Positions 1 to 11,383 of a stretch of 39,448 nt of DNA are shown in pieces. The stretch lies in the IMG/VR virus record IMGVR_UViG_2585427754_000011. The stretch is one strand, 5' to 3'. The notes beneath the pieces are model-generated. The model was given only the letters and a program-made list of their open reading frames with translations. It searched no databases and was not told the origin of the DNA. The DNA comes from a virus (taxonomy: Duplodnaviria > Heunggongvirae > Uroviricota > Caudoviricetes). Every line of letters starts with the position of its first letter. Position 1 is the stretch's first letter. The translations under genes were made by a program, and so were the position numbers.

Positions 1-1053
1 TTACGGGGTAATGCCAACCGCTGCCGCCACTTTGTCGCCACTTGGCAGCGTTGCCAGAGGATTGAAACGGAGCGCCGTTTCCAGATGATCCGGTGCCAGA
101 TGTGCGTAACGCATAGTCATTTTTATATCGTGGTGTCCGAGAATTTTTTGTAAGGCCAGAATGTTTCCACCCGACATCATGAAGTGCGCCGCAAACGTAT
201 GGCGCAGAACGTGTGTGAGTTGACCGCGAGGGAGCACGATAGACGTTTTTTCCATCACGGATAAAAATTGAAAATAGCAGTCTGTGAAGAAATTGAACCC
301 ATCAAGCGCCATGATCTCTTCGTAAAGCTCTTTACTGATAGGGATGCTTCTGTTTTTCTTCCCCTTCGTTCTTACAAAGGTAATTCGGTATTTGGTCACC
401 TGTGAGCGGGTAAGATTTACGGCTTCTCGCCAGCGTGCGCCTGTGCTTAAGCATATCTTAACTACCAGTGCCAGAATTGGGTCCTGACGTTTGCAATCAG
501 CCAGTAATTCAACAATCTGCTCATGGGTAAGCCATGCCATCTCTTTTTCTGCGATGGTGAATTTTCGCATGTTCTCCAGTGGGTTCGGATACGACCATTC
601 GCCCAGGCGGGATAGTTCGCTAAAAACACTACTTAGATAGCTTTGCTCCAGGTTAATGGTGACCGGGCTTGCTCCTTTCTTCCATTTCTCGCTGAAGTAG
701 ATCTCACCTGTCAGGCGTTTATCTCGATAGTGGGCAAACATTTTAGAGGTTAGATCAGTTGCAAGGGGATTGCCCAGAGCGTCAACCATCAGCAGCAATT
801 TGTCATAGACATGCTGCCCAGCAGTCAGAGATTTACCATGTAGTTTGAACCATAGCTCAACCACGTCTTTCAGTGTTCGACGATCCACTGATTCACCCAG
901 CCAGGGCTTTGCTTCGGTTTCTTCCATCGTGTGACGCTCAAAAGCCAGTGCTTCGCCTTTGGTGGCGAATTGTTTACGCACACGACGCCCACTACGTCCG
1001 GCGGGGTAACATTCGCAAAGCCATTTTCCTGTGGTGAGTTTTCGTACAGCCAT
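1..1053 (-). CDS. int: Tyrosine integrase, P2/186 family
   Basis: Translation from the internal ATG (MAVRKLTTGKW...) resembles P2 Int N-terminus (MAIKKL...) and carries the tyrosine recombinase C-terminal region (HVLRHTFAAHFMM...GHHDIKMTMRYAHL). The longer ORF start at 1131 would abut the upstream gene. Stop codon is at 1-3. Confidence 0.9.
   Translation of the reverse strand: MAVRKLTTGKWLCECYPAGRSGRRVRKQFATKGEALAFERHTMEETEAKPWLGESVDRRTLKDVVELWFKLHGKSLTAGQHVYDKLLLMVDALGNPLATDLTSKMFAHYRDKRLTGEIYFSEKWKKGASPVTINLEQSYLSSVFSELSRLGEWSYPNPLENMRKFTIAEKEMAWLTHEQIVELLADCKRQDPILALVVKICLSTGARWREAVNLTRSQVTKYRITFVRTKGKKNRSIPISKELYEEIMALDGFNFFTDCYFQFLSVMEKTSIVLPRGQLTHVLRHTFAAHFMMSGGNILALQKILGHHDIKMTMRYAHLAPDHLETALRFNPLATLPSGDKVAAAVGITP
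19..40. repeat. Putative attL core (22-bp direct repeat shared with 36594-36615)
   Basis: cgctgccgccaCtttgtcgcca at 19-40 versus cgctgccgccaTtttgtcgcca at 36594-36615; flanking sequence diverges on both sides. The core overlaps the int 3' end. Confidence 0.55.
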
Positions 1054-1054
1054 A

Positions 1055-1077
1055 AAAAATGCCCTCCAGTGGAGAGC
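1055..1077 (-). terminator. Hairpin plus T-run between the KAP NTPase gene and int
   Basis: Minus strand reads GCTCTCC-ACT-GGAGGGC followed by ATTTTTT immediately before the int ATG; the stem contains GGAGG, which could double as the int Shine-Dalgarno. Confidence 0.4.
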
Positions 1078-1132
1078 ATTTTTACTGTATATATAACCAG
1101 TGTCAATGTATGAATTTGTATAGCCATACATA

Positions 1133-2464
1133 TCACTGAAGTAAAAAAACTTTTAAAGCATCTTTCACAATATTTGTTGGTTCACCAATACCGCCACCAC
1201 CTTTTAAAAAATGGTATTCACTCATTTCTGCCCATTGTCTTTTTATATTTTCCTCAGCAGGTAAAAGAGATGAGTTTTCAGATAAGTATTTGTAAACTAT
1301 TCCAAATATAGCATATTCATAATTATCTACATTATATTCACTTGTTTGATATGAAAATTTAGATAAACCAAACAATTTCATGATTGATTGAGCATCAACT
1401 TTATCTTCAAGAAAGTTGAGAGCTAACTCTCGGTTAAAAGTGTAGATTATTATCGCTAGAGTCCTGTAATAACAATATCCATAAATATATTTGTTGCTAA
1501 TTTTGTCGCCTGATAGTAGTTGGTATATTTCAACATATCTAGCAAGTGTTTCAACCTCACGTAATGATAATTTTCTACTTTCAATGAACTGTAAGAAAAT
1601 ATCTTCGCTGGCTTCTACTGCAGCGGTCAGCCTTTCAGATTGCTCACATAGCATCATCCAATGATTTTTGGAAGTTAAAGTGTCATTATAATTATCTTCC
1701 TTAAAGGTAACAGGAAGGCTGTATGTAAATTTTATAAATTTGTCAAGATAACGGTTGGAGTCTACAGAAGAGCCATAGATATGATTTATGGATGCTTTTA
1801 GTTGAGTTGTGTTTGCAATTAATAAAAAGTTAATGTTTTTTATATCAAAAACATGTTTTATATTTTCAATAATAGAAATGGCAAAACTAGGCTTACATCT
1901 GTCTAACTCATCTATAATTATTGTTAGTTTACTTTCTCCAGCTAATTTGGTTAGTACTTCTTTTAGAGCAAGAACGTTCTTTTGTGCCTCGATATGATCT
2001 TCTAACAGAGCCTCGATGGTTCCATCGATAGCTGAATTTGCAGCGTCTTTGATAACCTCTTCAAATTCCTCATTAATTTCATCCGCATTTTGTTTTAATA
2101 CCCAACCAGCACCAGCTTTGAGTACAGTCTTAAGTCCGAATCTGAGGGCTGGCAATGCCTTAGATATTAATTCCTTTTTTTCATCGCTATTATATAGAGC
2201 TGCAATTGCGGCCATTATTGTAAGTATGGGAGCATCGTTGTGATCTTCAGTAAAAGCATCTATATAAACTACTTTATGATTGGTCGAGTTTATTTCAATT
2301 AAGGATGCTAACTTTTTTGAAAACTCTGTTTTTCCAGTCCCCCAGTCCCCATCTATGACCATAGGTGAAACAGGAATATTAGACTCTAGCAAACTTATTA
2401 TTTTTTCTGCAATGGCTTTTCTTTTATATTCATCACGTATATCGAAAGTTATATCTGTGCTCAT
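1133..2464 (-). CDS. KAP-family P-loop NTPase (443 aa)
   Basis: Walker A GDWGTGKT and the KAP-type Walker B IIIDELDRC are both present. ATG start confirmed; AT-rich relative to flanking phage genes. Sits 13 nt downstream of the small ORF stop. Confidence 0.8.
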   Translation of the reverse strand: MSTDITFDIRDEYKRKAIAEKIISLLESNIPVSPMVIDGDWGTGKTEFSKKLASLIEINSTNHKVVYIDAFTEDHNDAPILTIMAAIAALYNSDEKKELISKALPALRFGLKTVLKAGAGWVLKQNADEINEEFEEVIKDAANSAIDGTIEALLEDHIEAQKNVLALKEVLTKLAGESKLTIIIDELDRCKPSFAISIIENIKHVFDIKNINFLLIANTTQLKASINHIYGSSVDSNRYLDKFIKFTYSLPVTFKEDNYNDTLTSKNHWMMLCEQSERLTAAVEASEDIFLQFIESRKLSLREVETLARYVEIYQLLSGDKISNKYIYGYCYYRTLAIIIYTFNRELALNFLEDKVDAQSIMKLFGLSKFSYQTSEYNVDNYEYAIFGIVYKYLSENSSLLPAEENIKRQWAEMSEYHFLKGGGGIGEPTNIVKDALKVFLLQ

Positions 2465-2477
2465 TCATATTTTCTTA

Positions 2478-2660
2478 TTATTTGATGCATGTTTTTTTGG
2501 ATTTACTGATGGTTCCATCATTGCAAACAAATTTTCCATCAGAGGTACAGTGAGAGACACCTCCCTTTTTCCCAGAACAAGGATAATTTTTAGCATAGGT
2601 AGTTAGTGGGTTTAATAACAAAGAGCATGATAAAACCACAAAAAAAAACTTACCAAGCAT
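2478..2660 (-). CDS. Small secreted Cys-rich protein (60 aa)
   Basis: N-terminal hydrophobic signal-like segment ([12 protein letters not shown]...TYA), then a ~37-aa mature part with 4 Cys. GGAGG lies 6 nt upstream of the ATG. Stop is 13 nt before the KAP NTPase ATG, suggesting an operon. Confidence 0.55.
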
Positions 2661-2675: not shown

Positions 2676-3245
2676 TTATCTAACATACTTAACTGTTAAG
2701 CTTATAATTTTTCCAATTATTTCAACATCTTCTATCTTGCACTCGAAGGCTCTGTTTCCACCTTCAACGAAAATTCTTCCACCGGGTAAACGAGTGATGT
2801 CGCGGATTGTTATTTCGCCATCAATACTTATTACCCATTTACCATCACGTATATCATCAAATTCTTTATCACAAATAAATTCAGAATTGTTATCTGTGAT
2901 GACAAAAGGTTTTTTAAACGTAGAGGGTAGAAATCCCTTATCAAAAATATAAAAACCGTCTTCCTGCAATGCTCCATCAGACAATAAATATTTTACTACT
3001 TCTATAGTATTTGTATTTGCTGATGCTTGCTTTGAACCATGCCCTGTTGTTAGCCAATTAAGCGAGGTACCCGTTTCAAGGGCGCACTGGATTACCCAAT
3101 CTGCCGGAAAAATATCACGCATATAACGCGTTGCCATGGTGCTCTTAGAAACACCTAAATGATCACAGAGAGCCTGACGGGTACCGAACCCGTATGCTTC
3201 AACCAAACGTTCTATGGCTTTCTTACCGCCGCTATTGAAATCCAC
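2676..3245 (-). CDS. cI: CI-like immunity repressor (phage 186 CI type)
   Basis: Resembles 186 CI as I remember it (EAYGF...HCALETG...LNWLTTGHG) with an HTH-like segment. The ORF-track start at 3332 is a GTG and would overrun the promoter region; I place the start at an internal GTG at 3245 preceded by GGAGG. Confidence 0.75.
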   Translation of the reverse strand: MDFNSGGKKAIERLVEAYGFGTRQALCDHLGVSKSTMATRYMRDIFPADWVIQCALETGTSLNWLTTGHGSKQASANTNTIEVVKYLLSDGALQEDGFYIFDKGFLPSTFKKPFVITDNNSEFICDKEFDDIRDGKWVISIDGEITIRDITRLPGGRIFVEGGNRAFECKIEDVEIIGKIISLTVKYVR

Positions 3246-3272
3246 AAATCCTCCAAAGAAATCCAAAATTCG

Positions 3273-3301
3273 TTGACAGATTCCAAAAGCGATCTTAAAG
3301 T
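3273..3301 (+). promoter_or_regulatory. Candidate pR-like early promoter
   Basis: TTGACA at 3273-3278, 17-bp spacer, TAAAGT at 3296-3301, upstream of apl; sits in the cI/apl switch region. Confidence 0.35.
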
Positions 3302-3390
3302 TGAACCAGAAGTCTTCTTTTGGAGCCTTCACTACTAATCACGACAAACAACGGCTCGCCAAAAGCCATATCTAGAAGGAATGTTGCCTT

Positions 3391-3594
3391 ATGACACCTA
3401 ACATTTCAATTACTCTGAATACACCACATGTCACAATCGAACGTTATAGCGAACTGACTGGCCTTTCTATTGATACGATTAACGACATGTTGGCTGATGG
3501 CCGACTACCTCGTCATCGTCTTCGTAAAGACAAAAAACGTGAAAAGGTAATGATTAACCTGGCTGCTCTGACTGTTGATGCTTTGTCTGCTTAA
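3391..3594 (+). CDS. apl: Apl/Cox-like small DNA-binding excision and regulatory protein
   Basis: 67-aa ORF in the position of 186 apl, between cI (divergent) and cII. Confidence 0.6.
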
Positions 3595-3658
3595 TAGACG
3601 TCTATTTTCGCAATAAGACGCTGAGTTCGATTTTGCGATAAGTTCGGAATTGAAAACC

Positions 3659-4168
3659 ATGTTTGATTACCAAGTTTCCAAACATCCACATTTTGATGAA
3701 GCCTGTCGTGCATTCGCACTGCGCCACAACCTGGTGCAGCTGGCAGGACGTGCAGGAATGAATGTGCAGATTCTGCGAAACAAGTTGAACCCTGCTCAAC
3801 CTCATTTATTAACCGCACCAGAAATTTGGCTGCTTACCGATCTGACTGAAGATTCGACGCTGGTAGATGGCTTTCTGGCTCAGATTCACTGTCTGCCATG
3901 TGTACCGATTAATGAGGTAGCAAAAGAGAAACTGCCACATTACGTCATGAGTGCAACCGCAGAGATCGGACGTGTTGCTGCAGGTGCGGTATCTGGCGAT
4001 GTAAAAACCAGTGCAGGTCGTCGTGATGCTATCAGCAGCATTAACTCTGTAACACGACTGATGGCGCTGGCTGCTGTTTCATTGCAGGCCCGTTTACAGG
4101 CTAATCCTGCGATGGCGAGTGCAGTTGATACCGTGACTGGCCTCGGTGCTTCATTCGGTTTGCTGTGA
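3659..4168 (+). CDS. cII: CII-like lysogeny establishment regulator (phage 186 CII type)
   Basis: [19 protein letters not shown]...[26 protein letters not shown] closely matches my recollection of 186 CII; start taken at the ATG at 3659. Confidence 0.85.
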
Positions 4169-4409: not shown

Positions 4410-4815
4410 GGTTTACATCGTCAACCCGACCACAGGCAATAGCAGCTCTTTTGTAGGCAGGGTTTAACAAAGATCCGAATGTTGTGGAGTCAGAGTGATG
4501 CAAAGCTTTCAATTTTTGTGCAATGAACTGTGGAGACAATTCATCCTCGGCGTAAAGCAACTCACCATATTGTCGGCTTTGTACGCTTGCTCGTTCCGCA
4601 ATAATAGCTGGTTGCCATACAAGTTGGATTGTTGCGATTACAACAACAGGAAAAGCGAACAACCATTCCAGACCTGTATTAGCAAATACAGCTGTTCCGC
4701 TTATAAGTTGGATTGCTGTCATTAATTTATCAGCTCGACCATGGAACGTTGCTGTCATTAGTTCAAGGTAATAACAGTAGTGTAATTGGAAGTATTCGGA
4801 GCTTTGTTTAGTCAT
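4357..4815 (-). CDS. Predicted 2-TM membrane protein (152 aa), antisense to the early operon
   Basis: ATG start with AGGAA upstream; two hydrophobic stretches (LMTAIQLISGTAVFANTGL, WLFAFPVVVIATIQLVW) followed by a soluble C-terminal part. Hairpin ccccgg...ccgggg at ~4292-4316 lies downstream. Confidence 0.55.
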   Translation of the reverse strand: MTKQSSEYFQLHYCYYLELMTATFHGRADKLMTAIQLISGTAVFANTGLEWLFAFPVVVIATIQLVWQPAIIAERASVQSRQYGELLYAEDELSPQFIAQKLKALHHSDSTTFGSLLNPAYKRAAIACGRVDDVNLSFQEKLFAWFAGCLPR

Positions 4816-4824
4816 GCCGGATTC

Positions 4825-4905
4825 CTATTTCTTCTCTTGCCCCGGTTCAGGCTGAGGTGCTGGAGCCGGGCGAGGGAGTACATGAAAGTTGTCTGTTTCT
4901 GACAT
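4825..4905 (-). CDS. Pro-rich micropeptide (26 aa, MSETDNFHVLPRPAPAPQPEPGQEKK)
   Basis: Not in the ORF track (too short). ATG with GGAG 8 nt upstream; stop 9 nt before the ATG of the 2-TM gene. Confidence 0.3.
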   Translation of the reverse strand: MSETDNFHVLPRPAPAPQPEPGQEKK

Positions 4906-4995
4906 CAGTTTTCTCCTTTGAGGGGTAGATGATTGTTAGCACAAATAGTCTACCACTGAGGCACGCGCCGGGCGTGTAGAAAAATTCCCGGCACA

Positions 4996-5055
4996 ATCAT
5001 TTGCATCGCTGCTGGTAAAGCAAAGCCCGGCAATGCACTACGGTCACGGCTGGAT
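4996..5055. repeat. Direct repeat copy 2
   Basis: atcatttgcatcgctgctggtaaagcaaagcccggcaatgcactacggtcacggctggat. Confidence 0.85.
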
Positions 5056-5275
5056 CATGGGTGAGGATGGAAAACGCTGGCATCCATGTCATTCACAAGA
5101 TGAATTGCTGTCTGAATTGACCACGAGGAAACGGAGAAAGTCAAAATGTATGCAGCGGAAAGTGAAGTGGTTTATCAGTTTCGTTACAGAGGGGAGAGTT
5201 ATTCAGTACCTGAAGATGATTTGCTCTGTTGTTATCCGTCGTTGTCGGGCGATGGCAGTTACTTTTTCACGCTAA
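5033..5275 (+). CDS. Hypothetical early protein, paralogous start to 4176-4409
   Basis: MHYGHGWIMGEDGKRWHP... versus MHYGHGWIYLPCGKKWHP... in the first copy; overlaps the next ORF in another frame. Confidence 0.3.
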   Translation: MHYGHGWIMGEDGKRWHPCHSQDELLSELTTRKRRKSKCMQRKVKWFISFVTEGRVIQYLKMICSVVIRRCRAMAVTFSR

Positions 5276-5370
5276 AAGATGGGACGTTTTTACGGGGAGA
5301 GCAGGTTAAAGAGACGATACGAAAAAATGTATCTCCTCTTGAACGTTACCGTAATAACAAACAACGATAG
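5146..5370 (+). CDS. Hypothetical early protein (74 aa)
   Basis: ATG with AGGAAACGGAGAAAG upstream. Confidence 0.4.
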   Translation: MYAAESEVVYQFRYRGESYSVPEDDLLCCYPSLSGDGSYFFTLKDGTFLRGEQVKETIRKNVSPLERYRNNKQR

Positions 5371-5392
5371 TTGCGTTTTGGGGATATGAATT

Positions 5393-5734
5393 ATGGCAAT
5401 TAATGGCGCTGCGGCGACTGTTCCATTAAGCCCCGGTGAACGCCTGAATGGACTTAATCACATTGCGGAGCTAAGGGCGAAAGTTTTTGGCCTGAATATT
5501 GAGTCAGAGCTTGAGCGGTTTATTAAAGATATGCGTGATCCACGGGATATCAATAATGAACAAAATAAACGGGCACTGGCTGCCATATTCTTTATGGCAA
5601 AAATTCCAGCTGAACGTCATAGCATCAGCATTAATGAGCTGACCACTGACGAAAAGCGGGAGCTGATTAAAGCAATGAATCATTTTCGTGCAGTGGTGAG
5701 CTTATTTCCCAGACGGCTAACCATGCCCAATTAA
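5393..5734 (+). CDS. Hypothetical early protein (113 aa)
   Basis: ORF in the early operon, co-oriented with neighbours. Confidence 0.5.
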   Translation: MAINGAAATVPLSPGERLNGLNHIAELRAKVFGLNIESELERFIKDMRDPRDINNEQNKRALAAIFFMAKIPAERHSISINELTTDEKRELIKAMNHFRAVVSLFPRRLTMPN

Positions 5735-5801
5735 CCAACTAATGAAATTAATGGCGTAAACCCGCCGGGCATCCCTTTATCTAAATTCAGGAGAATTGAT
5801 T

Positions 5802-6035
5802 ATGCGTAATATTGAAACCCTCACGACTAAAACCGGACCGGATGACGCAGGGCTTAATATTTTACTGACAGAGGCTCGTCTGGAAGAACGCCGGGCAAGG
5901 GCTGAAGCAATGGCAGCTCGCCTTGATAGCCTGGCGTGTCATATCTCATCCCGTCAGCTAAACCACGTGGAAGCGGCAGAACTGCTGCGTGTGACTGCTG
6001 AAGCAATCCAGAACGAAGCGCAGGAGATCCACTAA
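5802..6035 (+). CDS. Hypothetical early protein (77 aa)
   Basis: ATG at 5802 with AGGAG 9 nt upstream; stop overlaps the next start (TAATG). Confidence 0.5.
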   Translation: MRNIETLTTKTGPDDAGLNILLTEARLEERRARAEAMAARLDSLACHISSRQLNHVEAAELLRVTAEAIQNEAQEIH

Positions 6036-6262
6036 TGGCTGATGCAATGGATCTCGTACAGCAGCGCGTTGAAGAAGAACGCCAGCGCCATATCCGTGCT
6101 GCCCGTGCCAAAACGCCGGGCGTGTCCCGCGTGCTTTGCGTTGAGTGTGAAGCGCCAATTCCGCCAGCACGCCGCCGTGCCATTCCGGGTGTGCAGCTTT
6201 GCATTACCTGTCAGGAAATCGCAGAGCTGAAAGGCAAACATTACAACGGAGGTGCTGTATGA
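6035..6262 (+). CDS. TraR/DksA-type C4 zinc-finger protein
   Basis: CVEC...CITC four-cysteine pattern in a 75-aa protein; stop overlaps the dam start (ATGA). Confidence 0.7.
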   Translation: MADAMDLVQQRVEEERQRHIRAARAKTPGVSRVLCVECEAPIPPARRRAIPGVQLCITCQEIAELKGKHYNGGAV

Positions 6263-7116
6263 GCACCATCCTGAAATGGGCGGGAAATAAAACCGCAATT
6301 ATGTCCGAACTGAAAAAACACCTTCCTGCTGGCCCGCGACTGGTTGAACCTTTCGCGGGTTCCTGTGCTGTGATGATGGAGACGGATTATCCCAGCTATC
6401 TGGTTGCGGATATTAATCCTGATTTAATCAACCTCTATAAAAAGGTTGCCGCTGATTGTGAATCATTTATATCTCGCGCCAGAGTTTTATTTAAGGAAGC
6501 AAACAGGGAGGTGGCTTATTACAACATAAGGCAGGAGTTTAATTACTCAACTGAAATTACTGATTTCATGAAAGCGGTATATTTCCTGTATCTCAATCGT
6601 CACGGTTACCGTGGTTTATGTCGCTATAACAAGAGCGGGCATTTCAACATTCCCTACGGTAATTATAAAAATCCGTATTTCCCTGAAAAAGAAATTCGCG
6701 CATTTGCAGAAAAAGCCCAGCGGGCAACGTTTATCTGCGCCAGCTTTGATGAAACGCTGGCGATGTTGAAGGCGGGGGATGTGGTGTATTGCGATCCGCC
6801 GTATGACGGCACGTTTTCCGGTTATCACACTGACGGCTTCACTGAAGATGACCAGTATCACCTGGCATCCGTTCTTGAACATCGGTCATCAGAAGGACAT
6901 CCGGTCATTGTTTCTAACAGTGACACATCCCTGATCCGTTCGCTGTATCGCAATTTTACTCACCACTACATCAAGGCAAAACGCAGCATCGGCGTAGCAG
7001 CTGGTGAGAGTAAATCTGCAACAGAAATCATCGCTGTTTCTGGGGCGTGCTGCTGGGTGGGATTTGATCCTTCGCGTGGCGTGGATAGTTCAGCCGTGTA
7101 CGGAGTGCGTGCATGA
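6259..7116 (+). CDS. dam: DNA adenine methyltransferase (Dam-like)
   Basis: ILKWAGNK N-terminus, FAGS, and DPPY catalytic motif. ATG at 6259 with GGAGGTG upstream. Confidence 0.85.
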
Positions 7117-9619: not shown

Positions 9620-9639
9620 TACTGTAAATATAAACAGTG
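9620..9639. promoter_or_regulatory. LexA box (SOS operator)
   Basis: TACTGTAAATATAAACAGTG fits CTGT-N8-ACAG; overlaps a TATACT -10-like hexamer upstream of the tum-like ORF. Confidence 0.6.
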
Positions 9640-9680: not shown

Positions 9681-9869
9681 ATGCAGGACTATTTTTTGGA
9701 GTCTTTGAAGCTCCAGCGCATTGATTTTTTTCTTAAGCTTGTAGCGGCTAGTGAGTGTAGTGATGAAGAGAAGGGGCTGGCTCTGCAGTGGGTTTCTGAA
9801 TTGACTGATGAACTCATGGCAAAAATCAGAAGCCACGAATACAACCGCTCAATGGATGTCATCAGCTGA
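9681..9869 (+). CDS. Putative Tum-like antirepressor (62 aa)
   Basis: First ORF after the LexA box, strong AGGAGG RBS; position matches 186 tum. No sequence-level confirmation. Confidence 0.4.
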   Translation: MQDYFLESLKLQRIDFFLKLVAASECSDEEKGLALQWVSELTDELMAKIRSHEYNRSMDVIS

Positions 9870-9879
9870 GGTGACTTTT

Positions 9880-10113
9880 ATGCGCATTGAAATAATGATC
9901 GATAAAGAGCAGAAGATTAGCCAGTCTACCCTGGACGCCCTTGAATCCGAGCTTTACCGCAATCTGCGCCCCCTGTATCCCAAAACGGTAATTCGTATCC
10001 GCAAAGGTAGCTCTAACGGTGTGGAACTTACCGGATTGCAACTGGACGAAGAAAGAAAACAAGTGATGAAAATTATGCAGAAGGTGTGGGAAGACGACAG
10101 CTGGCTGCATTAA
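9880..10113 (+). CDS. DinI-like protein
   Basis: MRIEIMIDKEQK...WEDDSWL resembles E. coli DinI (MRIEVTIAK...WESADDWF) as recalled; GAGGTGA RBS. Confidence 0.7.
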   Translation: MRIEIMIDKEQKISQSTLDALESELYRNLRPLYPKTVIRIRKGSSNGVELTGLQLDEERKQVMKIMQKVWEDDSWLH

Positions 10114-10432: not shown

Positions 10433-11383
10433 TTAAACTATACCAGCGAAAGAGGTGCTTTTTGCTGGGGCTATGGCATATGAGAATGTTATTTCATTAC
10501 GATCATCGGCATCGCGACTACGATAAAGACTACTTTCAAGTTTAACGGCCAAATAATAACCATTAATATTTTGAATAACTGCAATATCGCCAACTTCAAG
10601 CGATTCTGTATCTTCACTCTTGAAGAATGCTTCAGAATTGGCATCTGTGATTTGATTGAAATCGGTAATGCCTTTAGCAAATACTAAGGAATGGAGACTT
10701 GGCTGACGCTTGTAAATGTAGGCTTGATTACGTCCCCCAACTCCCCACTTTGTCTCAAAAAGCATTTCACCTGAGCCAACCCAATAAGAGTCATAATTTC
10801 CATTTGGCACAAATGTAACTTTGCCTGTGCTTGTGGGGGATTGGTTAGCCCCATCTGGTTGAGATAAATTGACAGGGTTGATCGGAGGCGGTTTTCGGTT
10901 AAATGGGCTAGGTCCAGCCGCTGGGCGTGGTTTCATTTTCTCACCGTGCAAATCATGGATCAGCTCTACATAACTATTCTCATAATCCACAGCATCGAAA
11001 GAAAGCCGAAGGCGCGCACCTACGAAGGTTGGAACTGGCTCAGATAATGAGTTATTAACAATTACAGGGATAACGCGATTACTATTCAATTCTCGCATTA
11101 TCTGACTGGAAATGATCATTTTCTCATAACCTACCCCCCCTGATTTTTGCATATTGGCTTTAGCTACATATGGTTCTGTACAAATGACAAGCACTCGGTC
11201 AGCGCTTGTAAGCCCTTGCTCCATGAAAAGAGTAAGATCACTTCCCAATGTAATATCCCATTGGTCTAAGATTACGTGAACTCCATTTTGTTCAAGCCGG
11301 GTCGCAAGCTTTAACACCCATGCTTTATGCTCTTCACTATCATGAGAATAAGAAATAAAAAGTTTAGGTTTAGTTAGTTCCAT
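10433..11383 (-). CDS. TIR-domain protein with unknown C-terminal domain (316 aa)
   Basis: N-terminus KLFISYSHDSEEHKAW...VLVICTEPY is TIR-like, including a candidate catalytic Glu; ~180-aa C-terminal region without recognisable motifs. ATG start; AT-rich. Confidence 0.75.
   Translation of the reverse strand: MELTKPKLFISYSHDSEEHKAWVLKLATRLEQNGVHVILDQWDITLGSDLTLFMEQGLTSADRVLVICTEPYVAKANMQKSGGVGYEKMIISSQIMRELNSNRVIPVIVNNSLSEPVPTFVGARLRLSFDAVDYENSYVELIHDLHGEKMKPRPAAGPSPFNRKPPPINPVNLSQPDGANQSPTSTGKVTFVPNGNYDSYWVGSGEMLFETKWGVGGRNQAYIYKRQPSLHSLVFAKGITDFNQITDANSEAFFKSEDTESLEVGDIAVIQNINGYYLAVKLESSLYRSRDADDRNEITFSYAIAPAKSTSFAGIV

Follow-up and report, generated by a model that had tools for sequence, protein, structure and literature searches.

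The window analysed here, a stretch of 39,448 nucleotides (nt) of viral DNA (IMG/VR record IMGVR_UViG_2585427754_000011), begins with the left end of a prophage of the 186-like kind (Peduoviridae). Its first gene, int (1..1053, minus strand, ATG at 1053..1051), encodes a P2/186-type tyrosine integrase of 350 amino acids (aa; Pfam Int_N 3e-32, Phage_integrase 7e-22) and is preceded by a hairpin with a U-tract that contains the int Shine-Dalgarno (SD) sequence. We found that this hairpin is the downstream end of a putative int control module of ~80 nt (1054-1131, minus strand), which is shared by relatives carrying other genes between the repressor gene cI and int. The module also holds a predicted promoter, a LexA-type box and an inverted repeat resembling the operator of the lysogeny-establishment activator CII. 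Such a module would uncouple int from the lysogenic cI operon. Taken as a whole, our model of its action, which comprises insulation from upstream transcripts, a promoter belonging to int, gating by LexA and activation by CII, seems to us to stand slightly better than an even chance of being substantially right.

The hairpin and the predicted promoter upstream of int

On the minus strand the sequence leading into int reads AAAAATGCTCTCC-ACT-GGAGGGCATTTTTT-ATG. It forms a core hairpin, GCUCUCC-ACU-GGAGGGC (1061..1077), with its 5′ arm at 1077..1071, its loop at 1070..1068 and its 3′ arm at 1067..1061, and A1060 separates the 3′ arm from a U6 tract (1054..1059). Flanking U-A and A-U pairs lengthen the helix to 13 bp (AAAAAUGCUCUCC-ACU-GGAGGGCAUUUUU, 1083..1055). 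Compared with 200 dinucleotide shuffles, the 30-nt element folded at -15.8 kcal/mol against -3.9 ± 2.0 for the shuffled sequences (z -5.85; 0/200 equal it), and the 19-nt core at -11.0 kcal/mol (z -3.55). The hairpin, which an earlier note on this DNA had described as GCTCTCC-ACT-GGAGGGC followed by ATTTTTT, is real beyond any practical doubt, with a helix longer than that note gave. Where that note let the T-run stop 1 nt short of the int ATG, there is no gap (0 nt).

As marks of an intrinsic terminator we took a G+C-rich stem of ~5-14 bp, a loop of 3-8 nt and a U-tract directly 3′ of the stem. The 8-bp core UGCUCUCC/GGAGGGCA has five G-C pairs and a 3-nt loop, and U6 (1059..1054) stands directly 3′ of GGAGGGCA. 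The whole lies downstream of a transcription unit, 55 nt past the stop codon of a cargo gene for a KAP-family P-loop NTPase (1133..2464, minus strand; Pfam KAP_NTPase 1e-53, PADLOC PDC-S20 2e-171). We consider that the hairpin probably has terminator activity. A program scan for terminators omits it, having taken the A/T tails into the stem and left too few T; this artefact was not used as evidence. The int SD, GGAGG (1063..1067), is located 9 nt from the ATG, entirely within the 3′ arm, and is wholly paired, as in anti-SD (fold-back) structures in which the 3′ arm covers the ribosome-binding site. It is the only SD-like sequence within 20 nt upstream of the ATG, which bears out the proposal that it is the sole candidate ribosome-binding site of int. 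The same ATG is annotated as the int start by RefSeq in Escherichia coli strain CI5, and homologues begin at the aligned ATG. An Rfam scan of 900-1300 gave nothing but STnc100 below threshold, at 18 bits where the gathering score is 47 (E 0.08), a match that we took as chance.

A promoter scan of the minus strand pairs TTGACA (1106..1101) with AAAAAT (1083..1078) at a spacing of 17 nt, with 10/12 matches; the -10 can also be read in another register, TAAAAA (1084..1079). The 17-nt spacer is a near-consensus LexA box (1083..1102; minus strand CACTGGTTATATATACAGTA, plus strand TACTGTATATATAACCAGTG), which agrees with TACTG(TA)5CAGTA at 17/20 positions and covers -31..-12 of the predicted promoter. 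It shows the features expected of a LexA operator: a CTG-N10-CAG palindrome with an AT-rich centre, overlap with a predicted promoter and conservation at the orthologous position. At three mismatches or fewer, two LexA boxes occur in the 39-kb window against 0.00 expected. Judged by these sequence features, 1083-1102 is very probably a LexA operator.

The second box (TACTGTAAATATAAACAGTG, 9620..9639) is the only other consensus-like LexA box of the prophage. It precedes an open reading frame (ORF) of 62 aa (9681-9869, plus strand) and an overlapping 101-aa ORF with a DinI domain (9808-10113, plus strand; Pfam DinI 1e-22). Box and tum-like/DinI-like ORFs together are probably the counterpart of p95/tum in phage 186, where Tum is a single protein; in the window the reading frame looks split or overlapping.

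Abutting the -35 of the int promoter is the inverted repeat ATGTATG-N12-CATACAT (1106..1131), a putative CII activator site whose distal half-site ends 1 nt from the KAP NTPase stop codon. ATGTWTG-N12-CAWACAT has a single match in the window (1106-1131) where 0.03 were expected, and the sole version with N13 is the pE-type CII operator ATGTTTG-N13-CAAACAT at the start of cII (3659..3685), which matches the annotated 186 CII site. The half-sites ATGTATG/CATACAT agree with the 186 CII half-sites ATGTTTG/CAAACAT at 6/7 positions each, and the prophage encodes a CII protein (cII, 3650..4168, plus strand; PF06892, Phage_CP76, 1.9e-41), as a pE-type promoter requires. Ogr/B-type late promoters carry a TGT-N12-ACA element at -55. 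We rejected this identity for the ATGTWTG repeat, in which TGT and ACA are spaced by 18-19 nt and the site lies at -38/-57.

The half-sites of 186 CII are centred at -38/-58 of pE (PMC6593788). In the curated 186 record, 21 nt lie between the end of the proximal half-site and the -10 TAAAGT, and the distance from the half-site centre to +1 is 38 nt; in the window the distance from half-site to -10 is 21-22 nt. Two rulers can thus be laid on the int promoter. Counting 7 nt past AAAAAT (8 past TAAAAA) places +1 at ~1071, and subtracting 38 from the proximal half-site centre at 1109 gives 1071 as well. Relative to this predicted, unmapped +1 the half-sites are centred at -38/-57, compared with -38/-58 in the reference. 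From sequence and position together, we lean towards reading 1106-1131 as a CII site.

The predicted int start (1070..1071, minus strand) falls within the hairpin: 1071 is the final base of the 5′ arm and 1070 the first base of the loop. A transcript beginning there, 5′-(C)ACUGGAGGGCAUUUUUUAUG, is predicted to be near-unstructured (-2.8 kcal/mol, z +0.67), with its SD free. We hold it slightly the better supposition that transcription starts inside the hairpin in this way, so that the mRNA of the promoter itself would escape it.

A further RNA hairpin is predicted at 1094-1139 (minus strand; -12.2 kcal/mol, z -2.85), over the KAP stop codon and the -35. It is made up of the CII-like inverted repeat with CAGTG/CACTG on its flanks, has no U-run and most likely reflects the DNA palindromes of protein sites rather than an RNA element.

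Conservation of the module and its association with int

To phage genomes, megablast homology extends over int and ~60-90 nt upstream of it and then breaks (at ~1111-1141). In the Klebsiella phages KP12 and 4LV2017 and the E. coli phage 813R9, int and ~60-80 nt upstream of it are 96-97% identical, and the genes between cI and int (a 558-aa protein; a pair of 349 and 201 aa) differ from those of the window. Among 5,426 complete E. coli genomes, the int-upstream stretch occurs in 784, the KAP gene in only 34. In phage ESSI2_ev129 the element is found within a 77-nt spacer between cI and int, with no cargo. This homology break, the rarity of the KAP gene and the cargo-free phage indicate that the hairpin travels with int and not with the cargo, and the element was kept with int across at least six cargo contents in addition to the phage that has none. 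The suggestion that the hairpin can terminate the upstream cargo operon is supported in that it looks like an intrinsic terminator after the cI-cargo genes; the element itself belongs to the int module. Its membership of this module had been overlooked in the earlier note, as had the LexA box in the spacer and the CII-operator-like repeat at -38/-57.

We assembled a comparative set of 77 Int-related Enterobacterales loci from a scan with the Int protein of one genome per species. CTG-N10-CAG was found 27-34 nt before the int ATG in 43 of them, in more than 15 genera and at Int identities down to 55%; the remaining loci have no such box at the int-upstream position. Box-bearing genera include Escherichia, Klebsiella, Raoultella, Citrobacter, Enterobacter, Serratia, Yersinia, Rahnella, Pantoea, Pectobacterium, Brenneria, Mixta and others. 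Among 31 distinct box sequences CTG and CAGT are invariant, and of 26 strong LexA-type boxes in 653 kb of related loci, 23 were at the int-upstream position. A -35-like TTGAC, the spacing and the -10 are likewise kept upstream of int in 43/77 loci, with TTGA(C/T) or TTTAC as the -35 in relatives and an A-rich hexamer directly after the box in all of them. This conservation upholds the idea, first raised from the TTGACA at 1106..1101, of an int-specific promoter, whose presence we accept with good confidence.

TTGAC or TTTAC together with an ATGTWTG-N12/13-CAWACAT repeat precedes the box in relatives. The repeat has N12 in about half of them and N13 in the others, such as L009, L010, L012, L016, L018, the Rahnella loci and ev129, and several relatives carry exact ATGTTTG/CAAACAT half-sites. 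An exact-pattern scan of IMG/VR for the composite motif, LexA box included, matched at least 120 contigs; among the matches listed, an Int homologue lay directly downstream in 104 of the 116 usable hits, that is, in at least 104 viral contigs. In a 186-type group (L048-L060), 186 itself, Fels-2 and ST13-OXA48phi12.1, the cI stop overlaps the int ATG or lies within a few nt of it, and neither box nor hairpin is found before int.

Between the -10 and the ATG the homologous leaders fall into many unrelated stem classes, among them GCUCUCC/GGAGGGC (the class of the window), AGCCCUCA/UGAGGGCU, ACCCCCUU/AAGGGGGU, UCACAUUCUC/GAGAAUGUGA, UCCUCCAU/AUGGAGGA and AAACUCUCCUAA/UUAGGAGAGUUU. A MAFFT alignment of all leaders cannot align stems that are unrelated in sequence, and we therefore used per-sequence shuffles rather than an alignment-wide covariation test. 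In 26 of 31 distinct leaders z was below -2 (mean -3.9), and in all 27 leaders with a recognisable SD it lay within the 3′ arm with 3-4 of its 4 nt in pairs. In all classes 12-15 nt separate the first -10 base from the end of the 5′ arm, and +1 is predicted at nt 13. Among the IMG/VR matches listed we found 70 additional distinct leaders of the same design. Two classes could be aligned, and each contains one compensatory change of C-G to U-A plus several C-to-U changes giving U.G pairs.

The geometry of these leaders bears on whether the hairpin is part of the int mRNA after all. Were the start at or before 1083, the hairpin would damp translation constitutively, or stabilise the 5′ end as a stem-loop, and hold Int down even while the LexA-controlled promoter is firing; termination of upstream transcripts would be secondary. 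SD occlusion is kept in lineages without a U-run and in those with a separate upstream terminator, as such a damper would have it, and the predicted start is uncertain by a few nt. However, no -10-like hexamer is placed for a start upstream of the 5′ arm, which begins 0-7 nt past the hexamer in every class, and the rulers of -10 spacing and CII half-site both put +1 at ~1071. We regard a hairpin retained in the int mRNA as rather unlikely and lean towards a start at the end of the 5′ arm.

The diversity of the stems could also mean that the repeat is not an RNA structure, but a DNA operator for a phage protein such as Int, CI or Apl/Cox. The palindrome adjoins a promoter, its sequence varies by phage lineage like heteroimmune operators, and the sense strand has no significant advantage in stability over the antisense when all classes are taken together (p 0.13). 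Yet the stem class follows neither protein type: the Int of 813R9 is 100% identical to that of the window and stands beside another stem, and CI proteins with anything from 44 to 100% identity to that of the window accompany the class-1 stem. A role as Int or CI operator was rejected on these grounds. Moreover, the 3′ arm holds the SD without exception, 3-10 nt is little for the loop of a dimer operator, and window-class stems contain 1-3 G.U pairs that give the sense RNA an advantage of 3.7-5.5 kcal/mol over the antisense. A DNA operator thus appears exceedingly improbable, and we treat the hairpin as an RNA element.

The U-run is confined to the Escherichia/Klebsiella-type classes and the counterparts of the hairpin in Serratia, Yersinia, Rahnella and Pantoea loci lack it. 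Of 45 box-bearing loci, 24 have a leader U-run and no separate upstream terminator, 11 have a separate terminator (GC-hairpin plus T-run) just upstream of the distal half-site and no leader U-run, 10 have neither and none has both; these groups are clades, and the counts are not independent. Such a split fits a history in which the leader hairpin would have assumed the terminator role in the lineage of the window. SD occlusion is conserved more widely than the terminator role.

In Rahnella-type prophages (L033 of Rahnella rivi, 3575-3650 and 3862-4003; L028-L038; L079), gpD and ogr stand upstream of int on its own strand, and a separate terminator of ogr precedes int. These prophages retain the LexA box, the CII-like repeat and a hairpin that occludes the SD but has no U-run. 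A second pE-like element is found just upstream of ogr (ATGTATG-N13-CATACAA, 23 nt, CAAAAT). It would be unexpected for a lysogeny activator and might be a counterpart of lambda paQ.

That element has a bearing on a further explanation, in which CTG-N10-CAG and the ATGTWTG repeats serve some other host or phage factor, the promoter is constitutive or otherwise regulated and the hairpin is a plain terminator. A similar repeat before ogr, the N12 spacing of the window repeat and the fact that LexA and CII binding are predicted only would all agree with this. On the other hand, the box reaches 17/20 to the LexA consensus with CTG and CAG invariant, the only other box of the phage stands at the expected SOS-controlled tum position, and in half-site sequence and -38 position the repeat matches the pE operator of the phage itself. 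We consider it very unlikely that other factors account for these sites, and LexA and CII remain our candidates.

Proposed control of int and its precedents

In the model that we propose, upstream transcripts, initiated at pL/pE and passing through cI, a small ORF and the KAP NTPase gene, would hold both arms of the hairpin and terminate in U6 just before the int AUG. In transcripts that read through, GGAGG would stay shut within a stem worth -11 to -16 kcal/mol and translation would be barred, so that the constitutive lysogenic transcript would yield little Int. The promoter TTGACA-17-AAAAAT would start at ~1071/1070 and give an mRNA without the 5′ arm and hence, if the predicted start at the 3′ end of that arm is right, with no hairpin, no termination and a free SD. 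LexA bound to the spacer (-31..-12) would repress this promoter in undamaged lysogens, and LexA cleavage would open it. The second LexA box, before the tum-like antirepressor gene, would open simultaneously, and Int would be supplied for excision with Apl. After infection, CII at the -38/-57 repeat would probably raise int transcription for integration.

The hairpin would most likely act on foreign transcripts and not on the own mRNA of int. The earlier note had int translation depend on read-through or on melting of the structure; with the start predicted at the end of the 5′ arm the int mRNA would lack that arm and have its SD free, and the logic of that reading is probably reversed. Put as an alternative, it would make the hairpin a cargo-operon terminator that also masks the SD, with Int produced mainly through read-through or melting and any TTGACA-derived mRNA keeping the hairpin. 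Hairpin, U-run and SD placement are all real, and 186 and P2, whose int is made from the lysogenic transcript, provide a precedent. But the only sigma-70-like promoter puts +1 at the end of the 5′ arm, a geometry that recurs in all stem classes, and the strongly conserved LexA box and -35/-10 would be purposeless. Translation through read-through or melting accordingly strikes us as quite improbable.

Several points weigh against the proposed model. What is observed are the elements, their statistics, conservation and geometry; that LexA and CII bind, where transcription starts, and that the hairpin terminates transcripts and occludes the SD are all deduced from these. The -10 of the int promoter is weak (4/6), and the predicted start is good to only about ± 2 nt; a start a few nt upstream would keep part of the 5′ arm. 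A convincing hairpin is missing in 5 of the 31 leaders, covariation within the two alignable classes lacks significance (43/500 and 45/500 shuffles score at least as high), and so does the difference between sense and antisense stability across classes (p 0.13). The hairpin persists in Rahnella-type loci that have their own upstream terminator, and insulation from read-through may not be its sole role.

The CII input draws objections of its own. The half-sites of the window are 19 bp apart centre to centre (N12) instead of the 20 of pE, and Shearwin and Egan are said to have found in 2000 that the affinity of 186 CII drops when the spacing changes by ± 1 bp. Unlike the poor -35 of pE, that of int is the consensus TTGACA, and an activator is perhaps unnecessary; with LexA removed, the promoter may work even when CII is absent. 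Owing to this spacing and -35, our name for the repeat is CII-operator-like, and we refrain from classing the promoter as pE-type. Finally, the LexA box is 3 nt from the CII site, and if LexA blocks CII, the source of Int during lysogenisation of undamaged cells would go unexplained.

Each part of the module has a precedent. The canonical 186 operon (pL/pE - cI - int - orf69) belongs to the same Peduoviridae family and shares with the window the CI/Apl/CII/Fil/tum-like switch, the gene order, in which cI and, downstream of it, int share a strand, and the CII operator of pE. Between cI and int, however, the window has 1.6 kb of cargo and the ~80-nt module with its predicted promoter, LexA box and terminator-like hairpin. 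According to two sources (PMC2951348; PMC7708051), the lysogenic transcript serves for expression of int in P2 and 186, and lambda pI is a CII-activated int promoter that makes Int independent of the main operon. The predicted int promoter would resemble pI in being adjacent to int and activated by the establishment activator CII. In contrast to pI, a LexA operator is added, and CII binding in the window is only predicted; the 186-type CII is also unrelated to that of lambda. Control in the window would act at the 5′ end, through termination and SD occlusion, and not at a 3′ site as in lambda sib retroregulation.

In integrons, a LexA box overlaps the promoter of the tyrosine recombinase gene intI and links recombination to SOS (PMC3108266, PMC3323433). 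The window likewise has a LexA box overlapping the predicted promoter of a tyrosine recombinase gene; here, though, the gene is a P2/186-type phage integrase, and the box lies in the -35/-10 spacer and is combined with a putative activator site and a leader hairpin. Within 186 itself, p95, the LexA-repressed promoter of tum, corresponds to the second LexA box of the window, which precedes a tum/DinI-like gene. The hairpin also has the look of the rho-independent terminators that end morons and cargo genes, with a G+C-rich stem, a short loop and U6 some 55 nt past the cargo stop, but it differs from these in being conserved with int, overlapping the -10/+1 region of the int promoter and containing the int SD. 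For the IS10 and IS50 transposases, Davis, Simons and Kleckner reportedly described fold-back inhibition in 1985: in transcripts from outside, a 5′ segment pairs with the ribosome-binding site, and the element's own promoter starts inside the structure and gives an mRNA that is free of this segment and can be translated. Compared with this case, the start in the window is only predicted, the hairpin also carries a U-tract and should terminate as well, and the gene encodes an integrase, not a transposase.

A literature search by keywords and box sequences, subscription-only papers not being covered, turned up no LexA box described for a P2/186-type int; the combination of parts at such a gene is not described in the searchable literature. 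If the model is true, this would be, as far as we found, the first described LexA-operated integrase promoter in the P2/186 phage family, and a common alternative to the accepted picture of P2 and 186, in which the integrase rides on the repressor transcript. The int gene would be silenced against the lysogenic transcript and tied directly to host SOS and to the establishment activator, in parallel with integron integrases and, through CII, with lambda pI. It would also give a mechanistic reason for the presence of variable defence genes at the cI-int junction that does not involve flooding the lysogen with integrase. This bears on the reading of prophage defence hotspots and on predicting prophage stability and excision in clinical and laboratory strains.

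One such laboratory strain is E. coli BL21, which holds the full module and makes each step accessible to routine genetics. Its degraded prophage of the same type is located at rcdA (L086 3555-3640; NZ_CP060121.1 ~842681-842766). There cII and the replication gene are pseudogenes, and the int module is intact, with the CII-like repeat, TTGACA, the LexA box and, ahead of U6, a hairpin that contains two G.U pairs.

The cI-int junction and neighbouring genes

Nearly all box-bearing loci with a recognisable CI have one to three same-strand ORFs between cI and int, and the cargo ORFs of box-bearing loci end 74-145 nt before the int ATG. In KP12 the cargo is PD-Lambda-1 (7e-120), labelled 'SNIPE associated' in RefSeq; that of L018 (2099-3337) is PDC-M18A, that of L014 (2461-3912) is another PDC-S20, and the slot of L001 is filled at 4637-6313. 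The cI-int junction behaves as a variable slot for genes of anti-phage defence, known or candidate. Its contents also include a HEPN-like protein and several proteins without a family match.

Transcription from cI would pass through the cargo towards int, and we infer that cargo genes are transcribed with cI in the lysogen, which is what would make a block before int useful. On a wider scale, a large clade of 186-like prophages, found in 784 of the 5,426 E. coli genomes, BL21 among them, and in many other Enterobacterales, may have rewired its int control through a terminator/anti-SD hairpin with LexA and CII inputs, and this insulation may let the junction hold constitutive defence genes, an idea that we advance tentatively and rate at just under an even chance.

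The E. coli strain CI5 genome is 100% identical to the window across 1000-1200, and its prophage adjoins rcdA. In the window the repressor gene of the lysogenic operon is cI (2676..3332, minus strand; Pfam Phage_CI_repr and Phage_CI_C), called by the program with a GTG start and 218 aa. RefSeq gives a shorter CI in E. coli CI5 (189 aa, 570 nt), and the true start is therefore probably an internal ATG. Between cI and the KAP NTPase gene lies a 60-aa ORF (2478..2660, minus strand) with a signal-peptide-like N-terminus and several cysteines. It had no match in Pfam or PADLOC, and small ORFs resembling it occupy the equivalent place in BL21 (63 aa), L004 and L005. An apl/cox-like gene (3391..3594, plus strand) is located between cI and cII. 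Just past the tum-like gene, on the opposite strand, the window encodes a 316-aa protein (10433-11383, minus strand) with an N-terminal TIR/SEFIR domain (TIR_2, 3e-21), which is probably a further defence-type cargo gene.

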